A DNA stretch of 64,000 bases from Candidatus Aenigmarchaeota archaeon LH_S6 (GCA_023659935.1 JAGXOK010000001.1:9569-73568); one strand, 5' to 3'. Numbered from the stretch's first letter, positions 3,967-44,616 are shown. Numbers and translations: made by a program. The notes: generated from the sequence alone by a model not told the origin.

Positions 3967-5756
3967 AGAATAAATTTTTTTTGATTGGATTAATCACAAT
4001 TTTGCTAGTTTCAAATATTAATTTTGCTTCTGAAATTTATCCTTCTATTTATGATAACATTAAAGTGGAAAAGAGCATCTCTGAGAGTCTTGTTGCAGGC
4101 TCAACAGACCAGATTAAAATCTCTTTTGAAAGTTTAGTCCCAGTAAATAACACACTAGTTGTAATGGTAAATATTAGTTCTGAAATACCAATAGAGTCAA
4201 ATGATTTTCAAATAAAAGGAAAATTAAATTCAACAATTATAAATACAGATTACTCAGAAATAAAAAATTTTTCCTGCTCTCAACTAAGCACAAAACCGGG
4301 AATATTTTACTGCCTGAATCTAACTGATATAGAAGTAAAAAATTGTTATGAACAAGGAAATATAACAATTTGTAATGTTACTGGAAATAAAACAAATCCA
4401 GTTTTACCTTTATCTGAAAATAAACTAATTTTAAATGTAACTCCAAATATAGCTCTAAAACCAGTGGATTATTCTTTTAAGGTCGGACTTTTTTCCGGGA
4501 TAAGAATTGAGAATATATTAAAAGAAAATCAAACTATAACTTTAAGGAAAAATATATCAAACTCTACAAAATTCTTAAATGAACTTTTGGAACTTAATCT
4601 AACTTCAGAAGAAAATAAAACCATATCTTTAAATTTAACTTTCTACAATCTTAGTTTGAAAAACTTAAACCTGCCCGGGATTTCAATTCCTATTTTATTT
4701 GACCTTTCTGCAAATGACACAGAGAACCTATCAAATATAGAGATAAATATTAATTACAGTAAAATTGGATTACCTTCAAATTTTAATGAATCCAGTATGG
4801 AATTATACTATTATAATAAGACCACCTACACTTGGGAGAAAATAGAAGATTATAGTGTAAATAAAACCGGAAAATATATCTGGGCAAAGTTACCTCATTT
4901 AAGTTTATATGGAGCATTTGGAGAGAAAATTATTATTCCAGATATTTATACTGCAGGTGGAGGTCACCCTGTAGAATTAAGAAAATCCTATTTAACAATA
5001 ACCCCAACAGGAGCAACAATGGAGCAAAATAAAACCAGAGATTTTGAGATAGAAGTCAGAAATATTGGGAACAGGGATATAGAAAGTTTTGAAGTGGTTG
5101 CAGAGGATTCTGAAGTAGAAAAATGGATTAATATAACTCCAAGTGAGGAAAAATTAGGGGTTGGAGAGATAAAATTCTGGACAATGACAGTTTCTGTCCC
5201 CTCTGAGGCAGAACCTGGAGTTAAAGGTTTCACAATTTATGCAAAAGGAGATAAACTCTCTTTATCTGTTAATTTTACCTTAACAATTGTAAAGAAACCA
5301 GAAGTTTTTATAAAAGAAGAAAAACCAGAAATTCCTGAAAATATAACTGGTCTGGCTCCAACCAACCTAACAGTTGTAATCAATGATGGAGTAGAAACAA
5401 CAAATTCCAGAAATGTAACTTTAACTTTCTCAGCAACAAATGCAACACAATGCAGATTGAATAATGATGGAATAAGCTGGAGTAACTGGTTCAATTATAC
5501 AAAAACAAGAGATTGGACTTTATCAGAAGCCCCGGGAACAAAAACAGTTTATTACCAGTGCAGGAATAAATTTGGTAATTCAACAATTGTTTATGACACA
5601 ATAGATTTTGTTGCTCCAAAAACAACTCTCCCAACAGGTTATGCTATTTTAACAAACCCTGCTATTTTAGGTTCAATAATTGGAGGAATTTTATTGGCAA
5701 TATTGGCTTTCTTGAGGTATAGAAGAAAACTTGGGATAAACAAGGAGTTAAAATAA
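3963..5756 (+). CDS. secreted glycoprotein-like surface protein with C-terminal transmembrane anchor
   Basis: Signal peptide and many N-x-S/T sequons. C-terminal hydrophobic helix followed by RYRRK. Translationally coupled to the upstream LTD protein gene. Confidence 0.45.
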   Translation: MKNKFFLIGLITILLVSNINFASEIYPSIYDNIKVEKSISESLVAGSTDQIKISFESLVPVNNTLVVMVNISSEIPIESNDFQIKGKLNSTIINTDYSEIKNFSCSQLSTKPGIFYCLNLTDIEVKNCYEQGNITICNVTGNKTNPVLPLSENKLILNVTPNIALKPVDYSFKVGLFSGIRIENILKENQTITLRKNISNSTKFLNELLELNLTSEENKTISLNLTFYNLSLKNLNLPGISIPILFDLSANDTENLSNIEININYSKIGLPSNFNESSMELYYYNKTTYTWEKIEDYSVNKTGKYIWAKLPHLSLYGAFGEKIIIPDIYTAGGGHPVELRKSYLTITPTGATMEQNKTRDFEIEVRNIGNRDIESFEVVAEDSEVEKWINITPSEEKLGVGEIKFWTMTVSVPSEAEPGVKGFTIYAKGDKLSLSVNFTLTIVKKPEVFIKEEKPEIPENITGLAPTNLTVVINDGVETTNSRNVTLTFSATNATQCRLNNDGISWSNWFNYTKTRDWTLSEAPGTKTVYYQCRNKFGNSTIVYDTIDFVAPKTTLPTGYAILTNPAILGSIIGGILLAILAFLRYRRKLGINKELK

Positions 5757-10741: not shown

Positions 10742-10962
10742 GGACCTGTAGCTCAGTAAAACTGCAAACAGTTTCCTTTAGAAATAGGCTTGATAAGCTT
10801 TCAAATTGCAGTTTTGGGTAATTGGATAGAGCACTTGCCTCCTAAGCAAGGGGTCGTCGGTTCAAAACAGGGGCTTTTTTACTTGAGGTTTTTGGAATAA
10901 GTGACAAAAAGTCAGTCAACCAAAAACAAATAAAAGTCTCTCTGAGAATCCGACCAGGTCCG
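10742..10962 (+). tRNA. tRNA-Arg (anticodon CCT) with two non-canonical introns: D-loop (about 10758-10824) and T-loop (about 10867-10948)
   Basis: 5' ggacctg-ta-gctc-ag. After a 67-nt insert comes ttggata-gagc-a-cttgc-ctcctaa-gcaag-gggtc-gtcgg-ttcaaa. After an 82-nt insert comes t-ccgac-caggtcc-g followed by an oligo-T. The spliced product is a canonical 74-nt cloverleaf. The acceptor and T stems pair perfectly only after splicing. Confidence 0.6.
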
Positions 10963-10973
10963 CTTTTTAGAAA

Positions 10974-11882
10974 ATGAGAATAATTAAAAAAGAGAAAGAA
11001 GAAATAAAATTGATTCCAGAGAACCTAAAGGATTTGTGGTTTCTATACAACAGATTAGATAATTTGGTGATTGAGCAGAAAAGTTTGAGGACAAAATCAA
11101 TTAATAGAAGGGGGGAAATTTTAAAGGGGAAAAAAATTCCTCAGATAATTGCAATAAAACTTGAGAAAAAAAAGTGGGAAAGCGACAAAATCAGGGCAAC
11201 AGGAAAAATTGTCTCAGGTTCGGACAAAAACAAGTATCATTCTCTAAATTTGGAAATAGATAAAAAGTTAAAGGTAGAGGGAGAATTAAAAAACCTGCCA
11301 AAGGAAGAAAAATATGAAATTTTAATCTGTGTTGTTGATAAGAAGAGGGCAGATTTCAGAATTTACAAATCCGGAAAACTCAGGGAGACAAAGAAAATTC
11401 CTTCAAAAGGCAGGGAAAATAATTTTTATAAAGAAGTTGCTTCAAATTTAAAAAAAGAAAGCAGAGAGATTTTAGTTGCTGGCCCTGGAAACACAAAAGA
11501 TAAAATTTCAAAGTTGTTAGATAAAGATGTTGTATTGGATAACTTGTCTTACAGTGGTGAAAAAGGAGTTAAAGAATTGCTAAAAAGGGGGAGTATTAAA
11601 AGAATAATTGAAAAACTTAGAGACCGGCAGGAGGCAGAAATAGTTAAAAAGTTTCTCGTTGAGATAAAGAAAAATCCAGAGAAAGTGTGCTATGGATCAG
11701 CTGTTGAAACACAAATTAAAAAGTTCAAAGAAATTCTAATTTTAAGCCCTCTAATTACAAAATATGAGAGAATTTTAATTGAGGCAGAAAAAAATGGGAC
11801 AGAAATAAATATTGTTCGGAGTGAAAAAGAATATTGTGAGGAAGTCAGAAAGTTTGAAATTATTGGGATTTTATGGTGGTAG
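10974..11882 (+). CDS. pelA: Pelota/Dom34-like mRNA surveillance factor
   Basis: Central ILVAGPGNTKDKISKLL (Pelota VVLAGPGF.KE.F). C-terminal eRF1-domain-3-like VCYGSAVETQ...EIIGILWW. 302 aa. Confidence 0.6.
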   Translation: MRIIKKEKEEIKLIPENLKDLWFLYNRLDNLVIEQKSLRTKSINRRGEILKGKKIPQIIAIKLEKKKWESDKIRATGKIVSGSDKNKYHSLNLEIDKKLKVEGELKNLPKEEKYEILICVVDKKRADFRIYKSGKLRETKKIPSKGRENNFYKEVASNLKKESREILVAGPGNTKDKISKLLDKDVVLDNLSYSGEKGVKELLKRGSIKRIIEKLRDRQEAEIVKKFLVEIKKNPEKVCYGSAVETQIKKFKEILILSPLITKYERILIEAEKNGTEINIVRSEKEYCEEVRKFEIIGILWW

Positions 11883-12574: not shown

Positions 12575-12753
12575 GAGAAATTTATAAAATCAAAAAAAAC
12601 CCTTAAAAATACAATAATTAGCAAATCAACAAAAATACTTATCAAAGCAGCACTTAAATCCCCACTCACTAAATCGCTGCTACAGCAATTGTTTAAAATA
12701 GGAATCAATAAAAACAAAAATCAGTATGGCTTTTTGTGGATTAAAAAATTATC

Positions 12754-13082
12754 CGCCGAGAGCAGGATTCGATTGCATAAGCCTTTCTGGTTAATTCCTC
12801 TATTGCAACCTTACAAACAGGAAATTGGTTAATAGGGGGTAGGTAAAGGTAAAAGCGGAAAAATGAAATTGGTTTTGGCTTGAATCTTTCGCTTAAATTT
12901 TTTCCCAAAAAAGGCTTTACCTGCGTTTCCTTACGGAAAACTAGTCTCAAGCCAGCCGCGTTAGGTCGCAAATAGCACCATCTGGGGTGCAGTTCTTGTT
13001 TTTTCAGAGAAAAAACAGATGTTCTATCTTTGATAGAACAACCTTTTTTAAAGGATTGCTTAGACCACTCCGCCATCTCGGC
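12754..13082 (-). tRNA. tRNA-Ser (anticodon TGA, class II) with two long non-canonical introns: D-loop (12961-13059) and T-loop (12773-12918)
   Basis: Minus strand: gccgaga-tg-gcg-gagtggtctaa[99-nt intron]cgc-g-gctgg-cttgaga-ctagt-tttccgtaaggaaa-c-gcagg-t[146-nt intron]tcgaat-cctgc-tctcggc-g. All stems pair and the spliced product is 84 nt. The six-frame ORF 12741-13076 coincides with this locus and is rejected. Confidence 0.55.
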
Positions 13083-14622: not shown

Positions 14623-15210
14623 CTATTTTAGAAATTTATCTTTAAATTTTGATATATTGAATTTTAATTTTCGATAAAAAAACAAAAATTCCTGGGTTTC
14701 CTTTTTTATGTAATCAAGAATTTTTTTGTATTCTCTATCCTTATACCATGCAGGAATTATTGCTCCTGAATGTTCCTTTCCTGTAAATTTATCCAGGCTA
14801 CAACCTTTAAAATTAAAACCATTCATTGCCAGACATATTGGTTTGAGATCAATTACAGGCAAATTATGATAAATAAACCAATTATTATAATTAATTCCAT
14901 AGATTTCTGCCCTATGCTTGAATATACCCAAATCAAAACAAACATTAAAACCAACAGGAATAAATTTCCATTTGTTTTCTGGGCATAGAATTTTTGAGAA
15001 TTTTTCTATAATCTCTTTTTCAGAGGACTCCCATTCCTTTAAGATTTTTAAATCTCCGACAGGCCCTCCATACTTGCCGATTTCCTGGTATTGAATTGTT
15101 ATAATCTTACTTTTTTCTGGGTCAAATGGAACCCTCTCCTTCCTTCTTAATTTTTCCACAATTTCTGGATCAGTATATCCTATCTCTATATCAAGATAAT
15201 ATTCAGACAT
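14623..15210 (-). CDS. RNase H-like (DEDD-type, YprB/COG3359-like) exonuclease
   Basis: YLDIEIGY (Exo I, DxE) and FNVCFDLGIF (Exo II). Overlaps the upstream paralog by 8 nt. Confidence 0.4.
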   Translation of the reverse strand: MSEYYLDIEIGYTDPEIVEKLRRKERVPFDPEKSKIITIQYQEIGKYGGPVGDLKILKEWESSEKEIIEKFSKILCPENKWKFIPVGFNVCFDLGIFKHRAEIYGINYNNWFIYHNLPVIDLKPICLAMNGFNFKGCSLDKFTGKEHSGAIIPAWYKDREYKKILDYIKKETQEFLFFYRKLKFNISKFKDKFLK

Positions 15211-15697
15211 ATTCTTTCAAGATAATTGAGTATAGTTTTTCAGAGGCCTGCAAATTTTTTATAACAGCTTCTTCCATTTTCTGATAGTCTTTATTTTTAT
15301 AAAAATCCAAAATTTTTTCTTCAGGAACAGCCATAATATTATACCTCTGACAATAATACTTAAAACTTTTTATTTCTTTTTTTAAAAAAATCAAAACTGC
15401 AAACAAATCCAAAATATTAGAACGGTTTAATTTTAGATAAAATTCATCAAATTTTTCCAGAGAAGAAAGTTTTAATAATAAAAGAGGAAAGTCAAATTTC
15501 AGTATATTATACCCAACAAATATTTTGTCATTTTCTTTTAAAAACCAGTCTCTAAAATTTTTAAGGAGATTTTCTTCACTACTAAATTTCCAACTCTTCC
15601 AGATTCTTATATTACTCAGGCCTCTCTTCTTGACCTGAATAGTTAATATTTTTGCGGAATAGGATATTCCCTCAGTTTGAATATTTAGAAAGAGCAT
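15203..15697 (-). CDS. RNase H-like exonuclease paralog with substituted catalytic residues (NxQ instead of DxE)
   Basis: LFLNIQTEG (Exo I degenerate) and YNILKFDFPLL (Exo II). Tandem with 14623-15210. Confidence 0.35.
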   Translation of the reverse strand: MLFLNIQTEGISYSAKILTIQVKKRGLSNIRIWKSWKFSSEENLLKNFRDWFLKENDKIFVGYNILKFDFPLLLLKLSSLEKFDEFYLKLNRSNILDLFAVLIFLKKEIKSFKYYCQRYNIMAVPEEKILDFYKNKDYQKMEEAVIKNLQASEKLYSIILKEYV

Positions 15698-23539: not shown

Positions 23540-23828
23540 GTTTCAATCCTTATTTCATTCGTTTTCTTTGAAAACGATGCACCGTTTTTCTTTGAAAAAC
23601 GAGTGTCTTGGACCTATCTCTAAAACGCAACCCTTTTCAAGGTAATTGTTGAAAAAGGTCTGCACCCTAAAAACTAAAATAACAGAATTATCACCCTGTT
23701 TTGGCTTGAGCCTTTTTAATTTATAATACCCATAAAAGGCTCATTTAATCCTTATTTCATTCGTTTTCTTCGAAAACGATGCACCGTTTTTCTTTGAAAA
23801 ACGAGTGTCATGGACCTATTTCTAAAAC
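23540..23828 (-). CRISPR. satellite repeat-X-repeat unit: two 85-87-nt expanded CRISPR repeats (each with a 52-nt twin-palindrome insertion) flanking a 117-nt X element
   Basis: 23540-23626 and 23744-23828 are the normal 37-nt repeat, with cattcgttttctttgaaaacgatgcaccgtttttctttgaaaaacgagtgtc inserted between cttattt and ctggacc. 23627-23743 is 95 percent identical to 25894-26009. Confidence 0.55.
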
Positions 23829-25265: not shown

Positions 25266-26117
25266 GTATTTTAATCCTTATTTTACTGGATCTATTTCTA
25301 AAACTGCCATATCTCCTACTACATCATCAGAACTCTCCGTTGCGTTTCAATCCTTATTTTCATGGACCTATCTCTAAAACAGAAAATTTAGAAAATCTGG
25401 CTGAAGAGTATGGTATGTTTCAATCCTTATTTTCATGGACCTATCTCTAAAACTTTCTTTTAGGTCTATGTTTCCCCCCATTCCAGCATGTTTCAATCCT
25501 TATTTTACTGGACCTATCTCTAAAACATTAGATACAAGGGAGAGAAAGCTTGAAGAATCTAAAGTTTCAATCCTTATTTTACTGGACCTATCTCTAAAAC
25601 AGGAATGCGCTCCAGAATCTATCATTACTTTTCCTTGTTTCAATCCTTATTTTACTGGACCTATTTCTAAAACACAAAGGACTTAGAGGGAACATAAAAT
25701 ACAAAACCCTGTTTCAATCCTTATTTTCGTGGATCTATTTCTAAAACTAACTCTGGAGGACGGGTTCAACGCAACTTCTGATGGTTTCAATCCTTATTTT
25801 ACTGGATCTATCTCTAAAACGAGACAGGGAAAAACCAACAACCAACACCATATCACGTTTCAATCCTTATTTTACTGGATCTATCTCTAAAACGCAACCC
25901 TTTTCAAGGTAATTGTTGAAAAAGGTCTGCACCTCAAAAACTAAAATAACAGAGTTATCACCCTGTTTTGGCTTTAGCCTTTTTAATTTACAATACCCAT
26001 AAAAGGCTCATTCAATCCTTATTTTACTGGACCTATCTCTAAAACTGTATTTTCAAGAAGGAAAAACCTTATCTCTTCTCGTTTCAATCCTTATTTTACT
26101 GGACCTATCTCTAAAAC
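25266..26117 (-). CRISPR. CRISPR array of 11 repeats; 37-nt repeat GTTTCAATCCTTATTTTACTGGACCTATCTCTAAAAC on the + strand; 35-39-nt spacers
   Basis: Repeats at 25266 (degenerate), 25344, 25417, 25490, 25564, 25637, 25711, 25784, 25857, 26010 (5'-truncated) and 26081. The reverse complement starts GTTTTAGAG and ends ATTGAAAC (a typical 8-nt 5' handle), so it is probably transcribed from the minus strand. That places the leader at 26118-26677 beside cas6 and makes the degenerate 25266 repeat the terminal one. Confidence 0.85.
25894..26009. repeat. 116-nt X element inside the CRISPR array between repeats 9 and 10 (second copy at 23627-23743)
   Basis: Too long to be a spacer. It holds two hairpins (ccttttcaa..ttgaaaagg and agccttttta..taaaaggct). 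The adjacent repeat is 5'-truncated. Confidence 0.7.
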
Positions 26118-26550: not shown

Positions 26551-26664
26551 TTTGGGTGTTGGCCTTTTGATAGATTTAACCAATAAAGGCTGACTCTTTT
26601 TTTATTGACCAATTTTGTAGTTTGGGTGTTGGCCTTTTGATAGATTTAACCAATAAAGGCTGAC
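26551..26664. repeat. tandem duplicated 44-bp hairpin unit (period 70 bp) in the CRISPR leader / cas6 3' region, carrying a TTAACCAA loop motif
   Basis: TTTGGGTGTTGGCCTTTTGATAGATTTAACCAATAAAGGCTGAC occurs at 26551-26594 and 26621-26664. Confidence 0.8.
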
Positions 26665-30085: not shown

Positions 30086-30221
30086 AGCCACGGGAGGGAC
30101 TTGAACCCCCAACCTGCGGTTTACAAAACCGCTGCTCCACCAGTTACCCCAACCTTTTATTTTCCTATCGACGCTTTTTGATGGACTTAACCAATAAAAG
30201 GGTTGATTGAGCCACCGTGGC
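30086..30221 (-). tRNA. tRNA-Thr (anticodon TGT) with a ~63-nt D-loop intron (about 30144-30206)
   Basis: Minus strand: gccacgg-tg-gctc-aa[intron]ctggtg-gagc-a-gcggt-tttgtaa-accgc-aggtt-ggggg-ttcaagt-ccctc-ccgtggc-t. The acceptor stem pairs perfectly and the discriminator is U, as is common for Thr. The intron contains the TTAACCAATAAAAGG motif on the opposite strand. Confidence 0.6.
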
Positions 30222-37188: not shown

Positions 37189-37600
37189 AATATGTTATGA
37201 AGAAAGGTTTAACAATGGGTGTACTATTTTGGGTACTTATATTTTTTATAGTACTTATTGTTTTTGTCTCTCTTGCCCTGTGGAGTAAAGGTTTTGGTTT
37301 AAATATTTTAAGTGCTTTATTAGGCTCAGTACCTTAGTATGGGGAATATAGGTTTGATAATATTATATGTTGTTTTGGGTTTAGTGTTTATTCTCCTTGT
37401 ATTTTCTGTTGGTTCAGCCCTCTCTTTAATATGAAAAGAGTTTTTTTTTGCTTGAGCCTTTTTAGTAAACTTAACCAACAAAAGGCTTATATGAAAGGAA
37501 TAACTATCGATATGATTGCGAGTATTATAATTTTATTTATGGTTTTTATAATCCTTACTGTAATTTTTATAGCAATGGGTAATGCAATACCATCCCCAAC

Positions 37601-42570: not shown

Positions 42571-43143
42571 TTATCCTCCTGGTGGTTGTCCTCCTGCTGG
42601 TTTTCCTCCTTCTGCTTGTTCCTTGCCTGCGCCCATTACAAACCACATCATTACTCCAATTACTGCCAAGATTATTATTAATGCAACTAAATCCTGTCCT
42701 GCAAATCCTGAATACCATCCAACACCTCCTGTTAATCCACCTAAGATTGCCCAAGCAGCGAAGATTATTATTACCAGTAACAAACCCTTTTTACCTTCTT
42801 TTATACTACTCACATAACCTGGTACTGCCAGTTCTATAACCAAAGCAATTCCTAAAACTGCAACCAAAAACATCATTGTCATTCCTGAAGCAGATATAAA
42901 GAATTGACCAACTGAAGAACCCCAGGGAGTAAATGATACTAGGAAAAATCCTAAAGCCAAGGCGATTAGTCCTGAAGCTCCTCTTGCTGTTGTCTCACTA
43001 GATTCACCAAACAACTTTGACTTCATTAATAGTCCGAAGATTATTGCGAATGTCAGAACCCATGGAAAAATCACTTCATACAACAGCGTACAAAGTTGTC
43101 CACTAATCCCAAGTACAGTACAAGCTGTGTAACTAACTACCAT
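42571..43143 (-). CDS. integral membrane protein with Gly/Pro-rich C-terminus
   Basis: Several hydrophobic helices and ...GGKPAGGQPPGG. The antisense ORFs in the region are rejected. Confidence 0.4.
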   Translation of the reverse strand: MVVSYTACTVLGISGQLCTLLYEVIFPWVLTFAIIFGLLMKSKLFGESSETTARGASGLIALALGFFLVSFTPWGSSVGQFFISASGMTMMFLVAVLGIALVIELAVPGYVSSIKEGKKGLLLVIIIFAAWAILGGLTGGVGWYSGFAGQDLVALIIILAVIGVMMWFVMGAGKEQAEGGKPAGGQPPGG

Positions 43144-43173: not shown

Positions 43174-44616
43174 ATGAAAGATAAATTAAAGAAAATTTCT
43201 GATGTAGAATATTTGGTTTCAAAAGAAGTAAGGGAAAAAATGAGGGTAAATGCAAAGATACTTGTTACCAATAAAATTATTGAAGCTGCTGAGGATGAGG
43301 CAATAAAACAACTCACAAATGTTGCCTGTCTGCCTGGGGTTGTGGAGCCTGTCTACGGCATGCCTGATATTCACTGGGGTTATGGTCTGCCTATGGGAGC
43401 TATAGGGGCTTTTAACTCTGAGGAAGGTGTAATTTCAAGTGGGTGCACTGGTTTTGATATTAACTGCGGAATCAGGATGATTAAAACAAATTTAACCTAT
43501 AAAGAAATTAAACCAAAATTAAAGCAATTAATTAATGTTTTGTTTCATAATGTTCCAACAGGGGTTGGCTCAAAGGGGAAATTGAGATTGTCAAGAGATG
43601 AATTAGATGAAGTTCTTGTTAAAGGAGCAAGATGGGCTATGGAAAATAATTATGCAACAAAAGAAGATTTGCAACATATGGAGGAATACGGTAATATGTC
43701 TGGTGCAAGTGTAGATAAAATTTCTGATTTGGCAAAAAAGAGGGGTCTTCCACAATTAGGAACTTTGGGTGCAGGGAATCATTTTCTGGAAATTCAGAAA
43801 GTTGACCAGATTTTTGATTCTGAAACTGCAAAAATTTTTGGTGTTACTGACAAGGATCAGATTATTGTAATGTTACATTGTGGTTCTCGTGGTTTGGGTC
43901 ATCAGATTGCCACAGATTATTTGAAAATTCATGAAAAGGCTGCAAAAAAATATAATATCTGGCTTCCAGACAAGCAACTTGTTTGTGCTCCTGCAAATTC
44001 TAAGGAAGGACAGGATTATTTTGAAGCAATGAAAGGAGGGGTAAATTATGCTTTTACAAACAGAACTGTGATGACAGATTGGATTAGAGAGAGTTTTGAA
44101 AAAGTTTTTGGAAAAACTAGAGAGGAAATGGATATGAAACTAATTTATGATGTGTGCCACAATATTTGTAAACTGGAAGAACATGAAGTTGAAGGTGAGA
44201 AAAGAAAATTATATGTTCATAGGAAAGGAGCAACAAGAAGTCTTCCTGCCGGACATGAGTTATTACCAGAAACTTACAAAAAAGTGGGGCAGCCTGTTTT
44301 AATTGCGGGTTCAATGGGAACTGCAAGTTATATTTTAGTTGGAGGTGAAAAAGCAAAGAAAACTTTTTACTCGAGTTGCCATGGAGCAGGAAGAGTAATG
44401 AGCAGGAGCAAAGCAATAAGAGATTTCAGGGGGAATACAATTAGAGAAGAATTAGCTAAAAGAGGAATTACTGCAAAGTCCACAAGCCCAAAAATTCTGG
44501 CTGAAGAATCACCAAATGCTTATAAGGATATTGACGAAGTTGCAAAAGCAGTTGACATTGCGGGAATCTCAAAGAAAGTTGTTCGGGTTGTTCCTGTTGG
44601 GGTTGTTAAGGGATAA
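43174..44616 (+). CDS. rtcB: RNA-splicing ligase RtcB
   Basis: HWGYGLPMG, NCGIRM, GAGNHF and SCHGAG motifs. 480 aa. Confidence 0.85.
   Translation: MKDKLKKISDVEYLVSKEVREKMRVNAKILVTNKIIEAAEDEAIKQLTNVACLPGVVEPVYGMPDIHWGYGLPMGAIGAFNSEEGVISSGCTGFDINCGIRMIKTNLTYKEIKPKLKQLINVLFHNVPTGVGSKGKLRLSRDELDEVLVKGARWAMENNYATKEDLQHMEEYGNMSGASVDKISDLAKKRGLPQLGTLGAGNHFLEIQKVDQIFDSETAKIFGVTDKDQIIVMLHCGSRGLGHQIATDYLKIHEKAAKKYNIWLPDKQLVCAPANSKEGQDYFEAMKGGVNYAFTNRTVMTDWIRESFEKVFGKTREEMDMKLIYDVCHNICKLEEHEVEGEKRKLYVHRKGATRSLPAGHELLPETYKKVGQPVLIAGSMGTASYILVGGEKAKKTFYSSCHGAGRVMSRSKAIRDFRGNTIREELAKRGITAKSTSPKILAEESPNAYKDIDEVAKAVDIAGISKKVVRVVPVGVVKG

Follow-up and report, generated by a model that had tools for sequence, protein, structure and literature searches.

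A tRNA-Ser(UGA) gene with two probable non-canonical BHB-type introns in an Aenigmarchaeota-like archaeon and intron turnover among its relatives

Disrupted tRNA genes in archaea

The canonical intron of archaeal tRNAs, exemplified by that of Haloferax tRNA-Trp, is located at position 37/38 and is removed by EndA cleavage followed by RtcB ligation. Its splice sites lie in a BHB motif, in which two 3-nt bulges are separated by a 4-bp helix (helix H) and the splice site follows the second base of each bulge. Helix H is formed by four exon bases ending 2 nt before the 5' site and four intron bases ending 2 nt before the 3' site. The strict form of the motif is written hBHBh', and its relaxed forms are HBh' and hBH. 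Multiple-intron tRNA genes of the Thermoproteales were reportedly described by Sugahara in 2007 and 2008 and by Fujishima in 2010. In members of this group, such as Pyrobaculum, Thermofilum, and Caldivirga, as many as three introns of the BHB type can interrupt one tRNA at non-canonical positions, among them sites in the D and T arms. Their BHB motifs are relaxed and need an endonuclease of broad specificity, and the occurrence of similar intron sequences at different positions has been read as intron transposition (PMC4033280; PMC4090602). Archaeal tRNA introns are mostly shorter than 100 nt (PMC4033280). For several DPANN lineages, a 46-species survey describes a marked rise in non-canonical and multiple tRNA introns, links the presence of a loop-bearing EndA (with an extra loop) to increased tRNA gene disruption, and states that undetected disrupted tRNA genes probably remain to be found by manual curation (PMC5829648). 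Loop-bearing EndAs of DPANN archaea include the epsilon2 EndA of ARMAN-2 and alpha4 EndAs with an L3 loop (PMC3239211; PMC3488258; PMC5829648). Among the DPANN genomes that were added in the survey, none is from Aenigmarchaeota (PMC5829648).

The locus described here, at positions 12754-13082 on the minus strand of a stretch of 64,000 nt (hereafter the window), belongs to the known class of disrupted tRNAs of Thermoproteales and DPANN archaea. It resembles the Thermoproteales genes in having multiple, non-canonical introns with relaxed BHB motifs. In contrast to them, its host appears to be a DPANN archaeon of the Aenigmarchaeota-like kind and not a crenarchaeon, the introns are long compared with the usual length of less than 100 nt (99 and 146 nt, and 165 nt in a relative), and modules of the intron interiors recur in CRISPR-adjacent repeats. 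The disrupted tRNAs of DPANN archaea with loop-bearing EndA represent the same phenomenon in the same superphylum. Compared with the canonical 37/38 intron, the same splicing chemistry is expected, and two of the orthologous tRNA-Ser genes, L023 and L024, do carry an intron at that position; the window gene has none there, and both of its introns are non-canonical with a missing or irregular outer helix. As in the split and permuted tRNAs of Nanoarchaeum equitans and Caldivirga, the tRNA body is discontinuous and BHB-like structures guide the joining, but a split or permuted gene is ruled out for this locus, whose three exons are collinear, following each other 5' to 3' on a single strand over 329 nt, and are thus separated by cis-introns. 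The initial annotation had described D-loop and T-loop introns as rare outside a few archaeal lineages. This is a fair statement, yet DPANN archaea are already among those lineages, so that the locus is less exceptional than first thought. Its novelty is mild and lies in the phylum, in introns as long as 99-165 nt, in how densely non-canonical introns occur, and in a very recent turnover, which is seen between genomes whose neighbouring proteins are 91-95% identical (the window and the loci L016 and L021).

The tRNA-Ser(UGA) locus and other split tRNA genes

Read on the minus strand from 13082 to 12754, the locus shows the order exon, 99-nt insert, exon, 146-nt insert, exon (GCCGAGATGGCGGAGTGGTCTAA, 99 nt, CGCGGCTGGCTTGAGACTAGTTTTCCGTAAGGAAACGCAGGT, 146 nt, TCGAATCCTGCTCTCGGCG; Table 1). 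To judge from this sequence and from those of related loci, it is very probably a functional, endonuclease-spliced tRNA-Ser(UGA) gene with two non-canonical introns of the BHB type. The joined exons comprise 84 nt with a G+C content of 58%, compared with 32% in the window, and ARAGORN identifies them as tRNA-Ser(tga) with a class-II cloverleaf. The spliced product exhibits a perfect acceptor stem of 7 bp (GCCGAGA/TCTCGGC), a D stem of 3 bp (GCG/CGC), an anticodon arm with two G.U pairs (GCTGG-CTTGAGA-CTAGT), a variable arm (TTCC-GTAA-GGAA), and a T arm (GCAGG-TTCGAAT-CCTGC); its discriminator is G and CCA is not encoded. An 84-nt class-II tRNA-Ser(UGA) obtained by dropping 99 and 146 nt is what the initial annotation had proposed, and its exon boundaries, intron lengths, cloverleaf stems, and UGA anticodon were reproduced, apart from the 1-nt shift of intron 1 described below. 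Of the tRNA finders it had suggested, ARAGORN recognizes the spliced form only: the unspliced locus gave no call, even with the option for anticodon-loop introns switched on, and no Rfam match at gathering thresholds or permissively up to E = 10. A search of the long introns for C/D box sRNAs and other known RNA families in Rfam likewise returned sub-threshold noise only. Unconstrained folding of the whole 329-nt locus yields the acceptor stem and no cloverleaf, and is uninformative with regard to the splice sites.

To place the splice sites, every boundary register giving the same spliced product was scored for its fit to the BHB motif. The ends of the D-loop intron are ambiguous over five registers because CTAA is present at both ends, and only one of the five fits (Table 1). 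The length of 99 nt and the spliced product are as first described, and the position of the intron moves 1 nt upstream. In this register, helix H consists of exon GGTC (13066-13063) and intron GACC (12967-12964) with all four pairs formed, the bulges are TA|A and TA|A, and the inner helix is GCAA/TTGC (4 bp). The motif is also present in the unconstrained minimum free energy (MFE) fold (ddG 0.0). Its outer helix is irregular, as a 4-nt/3-nt internal loop lies between the motif and the closing D stem, and the D-loop BHB is accordingly a relaxed motif. For the T-loop intron a single register is possible. Here, helix H is GCAG/ATGC, with three Watson-Crick pairs and one G.A, the bulges are GT|A and AA|T, and a 10-bp inner helix begins with AAGCC.../...GGCTT; the outer helix is irregular, and the BHB-constrained fold lies 5.0 kcal/mol above the MFE. 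The T-loop intron thus shows the relaxed BHB form only and is the weakest element of the case. Owing to the G.A in the central helix and the energy difference, it could be a poor splicing substrate in this genome. The BHB structures that had been predicted at the junctions are therefore clearly present for the D-loop intron and present in relaxed form for the T-loop intron.

As a background control, all position pairs of these precursors were examined for a complete helix H (4/4) flanked by a helix of 4 bp or more. This strict geometry occurs at 0.12-0.23% of position pairs, so that chance would not be expected to place it at the few registers that the cloverleaf independently dictates. The arrangement of 3-nt bulges and a 4-bp helix was found at all 13 distinct intron junctions that were scored.

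Two further split tRNA genes are located in the window. The tRNA-Arg(CCU) gene was missed by both ARAGORN and Rfam, and its spliced product was confirmed. In the corresponding gene of L016, the D-loop intron is precisely absent (GCTCAG|TTGGATAGAGC) and the T-loop intron contains 55 extra nt. In the case of tRNA-Thr(UGU), Rfam sees only positions 30086-30153, since the 15 nt at the 5' end, comprising the acceptor strand and the start of the D-arm, are located upstream of the D-loop intron; after splicing, ARAGORN identifies the product as tRNA-Thr. A scan for G+C islands in all intergenic regions of the window revealed no hidden tRNAs beyond these three loci. In about 90 kb of related contigs, no tRNA was found by ARAGORN and two partial ones were found by Rfam. 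One of the two, a tRNA-Gly(GCC) gene of a more distant relative (L030) that Rfam matches at model positions 8-63 only, contains a 50-nt T-loop intron at 59/60 in its best BHB register, with three of the four pairs of helix H.

In total, the three tRNA genes of the window harbour five introns, all at non-canonical positions. Across archaea, 0.21 introns per tRNA gene have been counted with tRNAscan-SE 2.0, and 0.84 in Thermoproteales (PMC8450103). This comparison hints at a lineage with an extreme intron density, with three genes as a very small sample. ARAGORN detected none of the three genes and Rfam detected part of one. As tRNA finders miss such split genes, annotation pipelines for metagenome-assembled genomes (MAGs) will under-report the tRNA sets of this phylum and may annotate spurious ORFs across the tRNAs.

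Table 1. Positions of split tRNA genes and associated features, with the introns of related loci
Feature	Source	Position	Strand	Description
tRNA-Ser exon 1 (22 nt)	window	13061..13082	-	acceptor 5' strand GCCGAGA, U8 G9, D-stem 5' strand GCG, D-loop to ...GGTCTA
tRNA-Ser intron 1 (99 nt)	window	12962..13060	-	D-loop, approximately Sprinzl 21/22 (numbered by hand)
tRNA-Ser exon 2 (43 nt)	window	12919..12961	-	D-loop end, CGC, anticodon arm (UGA), long variable arm, GCAGG, T54
tRNA-Ser intron 2 (146 nt)	window	12773..12918	-	T-loop, between T54 and T55 (54/55); no 37/38 intron in this gene
tRNA-Ser exon 3 (19 nt)	window	12754..12772	-	TCGAAT, T-stem 3' strand CCTGC, acceptor 3' strand TCTCGGC, discriminator G
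Six-T run	window	12743..12748	-	5 nt past the discriminator; read from the sequence
tRNA-Arg(CCU)	window	10742-10962	+	two introns
tRNA-Arg D-loop intron (65 nt)	window	10757-10821	+	helix H GCTC/GGGT, 10-bp inner helix
tRNA-Arg T-loop intron (82 nt)	window	10867-10948	+	helix H TTCA/TGAG, T stem as outer helix
tRNA-Thr(UGU)	window	30221-30086	-	one intron
tRNA-Thr D-loop intron (63 nt)	window	30206-30144	-	helix H GCTC/GGGT
RtcB RNA ligase gene (480 aa)	window	43174..44616	+	Pfam PF01139, E = 1.8e-171, match 1-426/426, full length
tRNA-Gly(GCC)	L030, more distant relative	5474-5692	-	T-loop intron
tRNA-Ser orthologue	L016, GCA_023658875.1			PRTase 91% identical; D-loop intron 72 nt; no 37/38 intron; T-loop intron 33 nt at 53/54
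tRNA-Ser orthologue	L021, GCA_023658915.1			nuclease 95% identical; D-loop intron 72 nt; no 37/38 intron; T-loop intron 33 nt at 53/54
tRNA-Ser orthologue	L022, JGI metagenome contig			nuclease 80% identical; no D-loop or 37/38 intron; T-loop intron after TTCAAA, contig ends inside it
tRNA-Ser orthologue	L023 (= L027), ENA and JGI metagenome contigs	1545-1870 (L023)		nuclease 69% and 64% identical; D-loop intron 34 nt; 37/38 intron 90 nt; T-loop intron 85 nt at 59/60
tRNA-Ser orthologue	L024-26, GCA_023134135.1 and others	11212-11600 (L024)		nuclease 69% identical; D-loop intron 36 nt; 37/38 intron 165 nt; T-loop intron 76 nt at 59/60
tRNA-Ser orthologue	L028/29, ENA metagenome contigs			nuclease 61% identical; no D-loop or 37/38 intron; T-loop intron 34 nt at 59/60

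Orthologous loci and the splicing of the precursor

The tRNA-Ser gene is situated between genes for a phosphoribosyltransferase (PRTase) and a PD-(D/E)XK nuclease, and orthologous loci were reached through homologues of these two flanking genes. Exact-pattern scans of genome and metagenome contigs with the 18-nt anticodon arm gave, among the matches listed, chance hits in coding DNA only; the anticodon arm of the closest relatives differs from that of the window by one base. PRTase homologues with an identity of 77% or less are found in other synteny and without an adjoining tRNA, and the useful synteny anchor was the nuclease gene that flanks the tRNA on its opposite side.

After splicing, five orthologues were all called tRNA-Ser(tga) by ARAGORN, with 83/84, 83/84, 79/84, 77/84, and 71/84 positions identical to the window (85-99%). 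Exon 1 is identical in L016 and L021. Across the alignment of the orthologues, all 120 stem cells are paired (120/120), compared with 33-47% in slid controls, and three pairs are changed on both sides, namely acceptor pair 7:66, pair 27:43 of the anticodon stem, and one pair of the variable arm. Unguided RNAalifold analysis recovered the acceptor, anticodon, variable, and T arms. No D-loop intron is present in L022 and L028, and their contiguous sequence ...GGTCTAACGCG... corresponds exactly to the junction predicted for the window. An orthologue without a T-loop intron was not found at the loci reached; all of them carry one, at 53/54 or 59/60.

Covariation also extends across the exon-intron borders. 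The D-loop helix H is GGTC/GACC in the window and GGCC/GGTC in L023 and L024, so that a T-A pair is replaced by C-G, and at the 59/60 site of the T-loop the variants TTCG/CGAA, TTCG/CGGA, and TTCA/TGAA are observed. The 33-nt T-loop intron of L016 and L021 is unrelated to that of the window and located 1 nt upstream; its helix H (CGCA/TGTG, 4/4) is complete and its inner helix comprises 9 bp. The intron interiors are unalignable or rich in indels and the exons are conserved; relative to L016 and L021, indels are confined to the introns. Between the window and its closest relatives, the flanking sequences also show about 95-97% identity, and exon conservation is consequently informative only in the more distant orthologues. 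Taken together, conserved and covarying exons and BHB helices next to freely changing intron interiors point to purifying selection on the spliced tRNA, unlike what is seen in a decaying pseudogene.

Over the series, the D-loop intron measures 0, 34, 36, 72, or 99 nt, the T-loop site is 53/54, 54/55, or 59/60, and the 37/38 intron is present or absent. Introns of this tRNA thus appear to be gained, lost, and resized unusually fast among close relatives of the window, as far as the compared sequences tell. L023 and L024 each contain three introns in tRNA-Ser(UGA), including the canonical one at 37/38; to our knowledge, no archaeal tRNA is reported to have more than three. The orthologues offer a natural time-course in which introns are gained, lost, and expanded, and this series could help to test how BHB introns spread.

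The locus might alternatively be regarded as a dead tRNA-Ser pseudogene, broken by two insertions, with a precursor from which splicing produces no working tRNA. The imperfect T-loop BHB of this genome (helix H 3/4, ddG 5.0 kcal/mol) would agree with such a fate, as would the observation that the exons are no more similar to those of L016 (83/84) than the flanks are. Against it, the cloverleaf is maintained with compensatory changes at loci where the neighbouring nuclease is only 61-69% identical, the BHB helices are kept by covariation between exon and intron, and indels fall exclusively within the introns. In addition, all tRNA genes seen, both in the window and across the approximately 90 kb of related contigs, are split in a similar manner, and these genes cannot all be dead. 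A pseudogene is therefore considered very improbable.

The remaining interpretation of a functional, spliced gene involves an assumption about the enzymes. The window encodes archaeal proteins (GatD, a Pelota-like protein, the small subunit of RFC, RtcB, TFIIB, ribosomal proteins L2 and S8e, and the large subunit of PolD, DP2) as well as Cas6b together with a CRISPR array. The host appears to be an Aenigmarchaeota-like DPANN archaeon, since the named homologues of the flanking PRTase and nuclease stem mostly from Candidatus Aenigmarchaeota/Aenigmatarchaeota. The rtcB gene on which the initial annotation had relied, encoding the 3'-phosphate RNA ligase, is indeed present at 43174 (Table 1). Next to it, a divergently oriented ORF of 190 aa (42571-43143, minus strand), considered as a candidate for a splicing factor of unrecognized family, has no Pfam match even at E = 5. 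A splicing endonuclease (PF01974/PF02778) was found neither among the 57 ORFs of the window compared with Pfam, including permissive scans of ORFs without hits, nor among the genes listed for the related loci. Both the enzyme and its specificity are thus assumptions, and a relaxed, broad-specificity EndA in this host would be in line with the DPANN survey (PMC5829648).

Removal of the inserts by a route other than BHB endonuclease and RtcB, that is, by group I-like self-splicing or another nuclease, could be invoked on the grounds that EndA was not found in the window and that the T-loop junction is no textbook BHB. Group I introns share a conserved catalytic core (P3-P9), typically exceed 200 nt, and are represented in Rfam as Intron_gpI. 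At 99 and 146 nt, the inserts are too short for this core, and no intron family was detected in the Rfam scan of the locus up to E = 10. The signature geometry of the archaeal endonuclease was found at 13/13 junctions scored and additionally, in the 3/4 form, at the tRNA-Gly junction, and RtcB is present in the window. Such a route is accordingly rated as extremely improbable. The third proposal, that the locus encodes a protein of 111 aa (12741..13076, minus strand) and resembles a tRNA incidentally, has next to no chance of being correct, as the initial annotation had already concluded in calling this ORF a mis-report: the uninterrupted, ATG-initiated ORF does exist, but its frame is not conserved, with length differences of 28 nt and 113 nt inside the ORF in L016 and L021 (where neighbouring proteins are 91-95% identical), longest ORFs of 38-54 aa over the locus in these closest relatives, and conserved parts that coincide exactly with the tRNA exons.

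For the endonuclease-spliced gene, the following pathway can be envisaged. Oligo-T runs terminate archaeal transcription, and the T6 run downstream of the gene is likely such a stop. Transcription would yield a single precursor of about 330 nt that ends at this run, 5 nt beyond the gene. For each intron, a 4-nt stretch of the 5' exon would pair with 4 nt close to the 3' end of the intron, thereby exposing both splice sites in 3-nt bulges. EndA would cut in the two bulges of every intron and generate 2',3'-cyclic phosphate and 5'-OH ends, and the RtcB encoded in the window would ligate the exons and probably circularize the introns. The 5' strand of the T stem is engaged in helix H of the T-loop intron, so that the T arm can form only once this intron has been excised. 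Since CCA is not encoded, it would presumably be added after splicing.

Upstream of the nuclease, L028 contains a full-length PolB gene of 762 aa. At the equivalent place in the window (14623-15697, minus strand), two short adjoining ORFs of 195 and 164 aa match only exonuclease domains of family-B DNA polymerases, which suggests a truncated or fragmented polB.

Shared hairpin modules in introns and CRISPR-adjacent repeats

Several intron interiors are related to each other and to sequences elsewhere in the window. Module A (GCAAYCCTTT...AAAGGTCTGCACCC) is found in diverged form in the tRNA-Ser D-loop intron of the window, twice in the tRNA-Ser T-loop intron of L022, and in that of L024. It also occurs on the plus strand of the window at about 23630-23672 and at 25894-25940, the latter copy being located directly after a CRISPR repeat, inside an over-long spacer of 95 nt. 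Module B, two hairpins around GGTGCAYC, constitutes the 55-nt insertion in the tRNA-Arg T-loop intron of L016 and matches the anticodon intron of the L024 tRNA-Ser at 32/36 positions. Module C links the tRNA-Thr intron with a twice-repeated 44-nt element at 26551-26664 and with 37445-37490.

These relationships, together with the gain and loss of introns, the 1-nt slide, and the shifts between D-, anticodon-, and T-loop among genomes with 60-95% identical neighbouring proteins, raise the tentative and rather doubtful possibility that the tRNA introns of this clade form a fast-moving, semi-autonomous population, with interiors assembled from hairpin modules of about 30-55 nt. If so, a MITE-like family might use BHB introns as safe landing sites from which insertions are spliced out, or excised introns might re-insert elsewhere. 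The matches between modules are short (17-36 nt), with E-values of 1e-7 to 1e-2 in small databases, so that mobile modules are offered here as a hypothesis and not as a finding. Intron turnover and the question of mobile modules are the part of this analysis worth following. Nested BHB introns were considered as an explanation for the extra modules in introns and CRISPR-like repeats and were rejected, as no register restores an uninterrupted sequence with BHB geometry.

The main CRISPR array of the window extends from about 25268 to 26117. Its 'spacer' at 25894-25988, like the one at 23627-23743, departs from the usual length of 36-37 nt; it measures 95 nt, begins with GCAACCCTTTTCAAGG...AAAAAGGTCTGCACC, and may represent an insertion into the array and not a true spacer. 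Two CRISPR-repeat-like units are located at 23542-23626 and 23744-23828. Both carry about 51 nt of module B in the centre of a repeat whose ends are TTCAATCCTTATTT...GGACCTATCTCTAAAAC. Between these units, a stretch of 149 nt (23609-23757) shares 95% identity with positions 25876-26024 of the main array. Between the array and cas6b, two identical 44-nt hairpin repeats (26551-26594 and 26621-26664) are situated 70 nt apart, and their reverse complement matches the tRNA-Thr D-loop intron at 21/23 nt. A further hairpin repeat, D7, is present in three copies in the window (23699-23744, 25966-26011, and 37445-37490), the last of which matches the same stretch of the tRNA-Thr intron as the 44-nt repeat at 16/17 nt.
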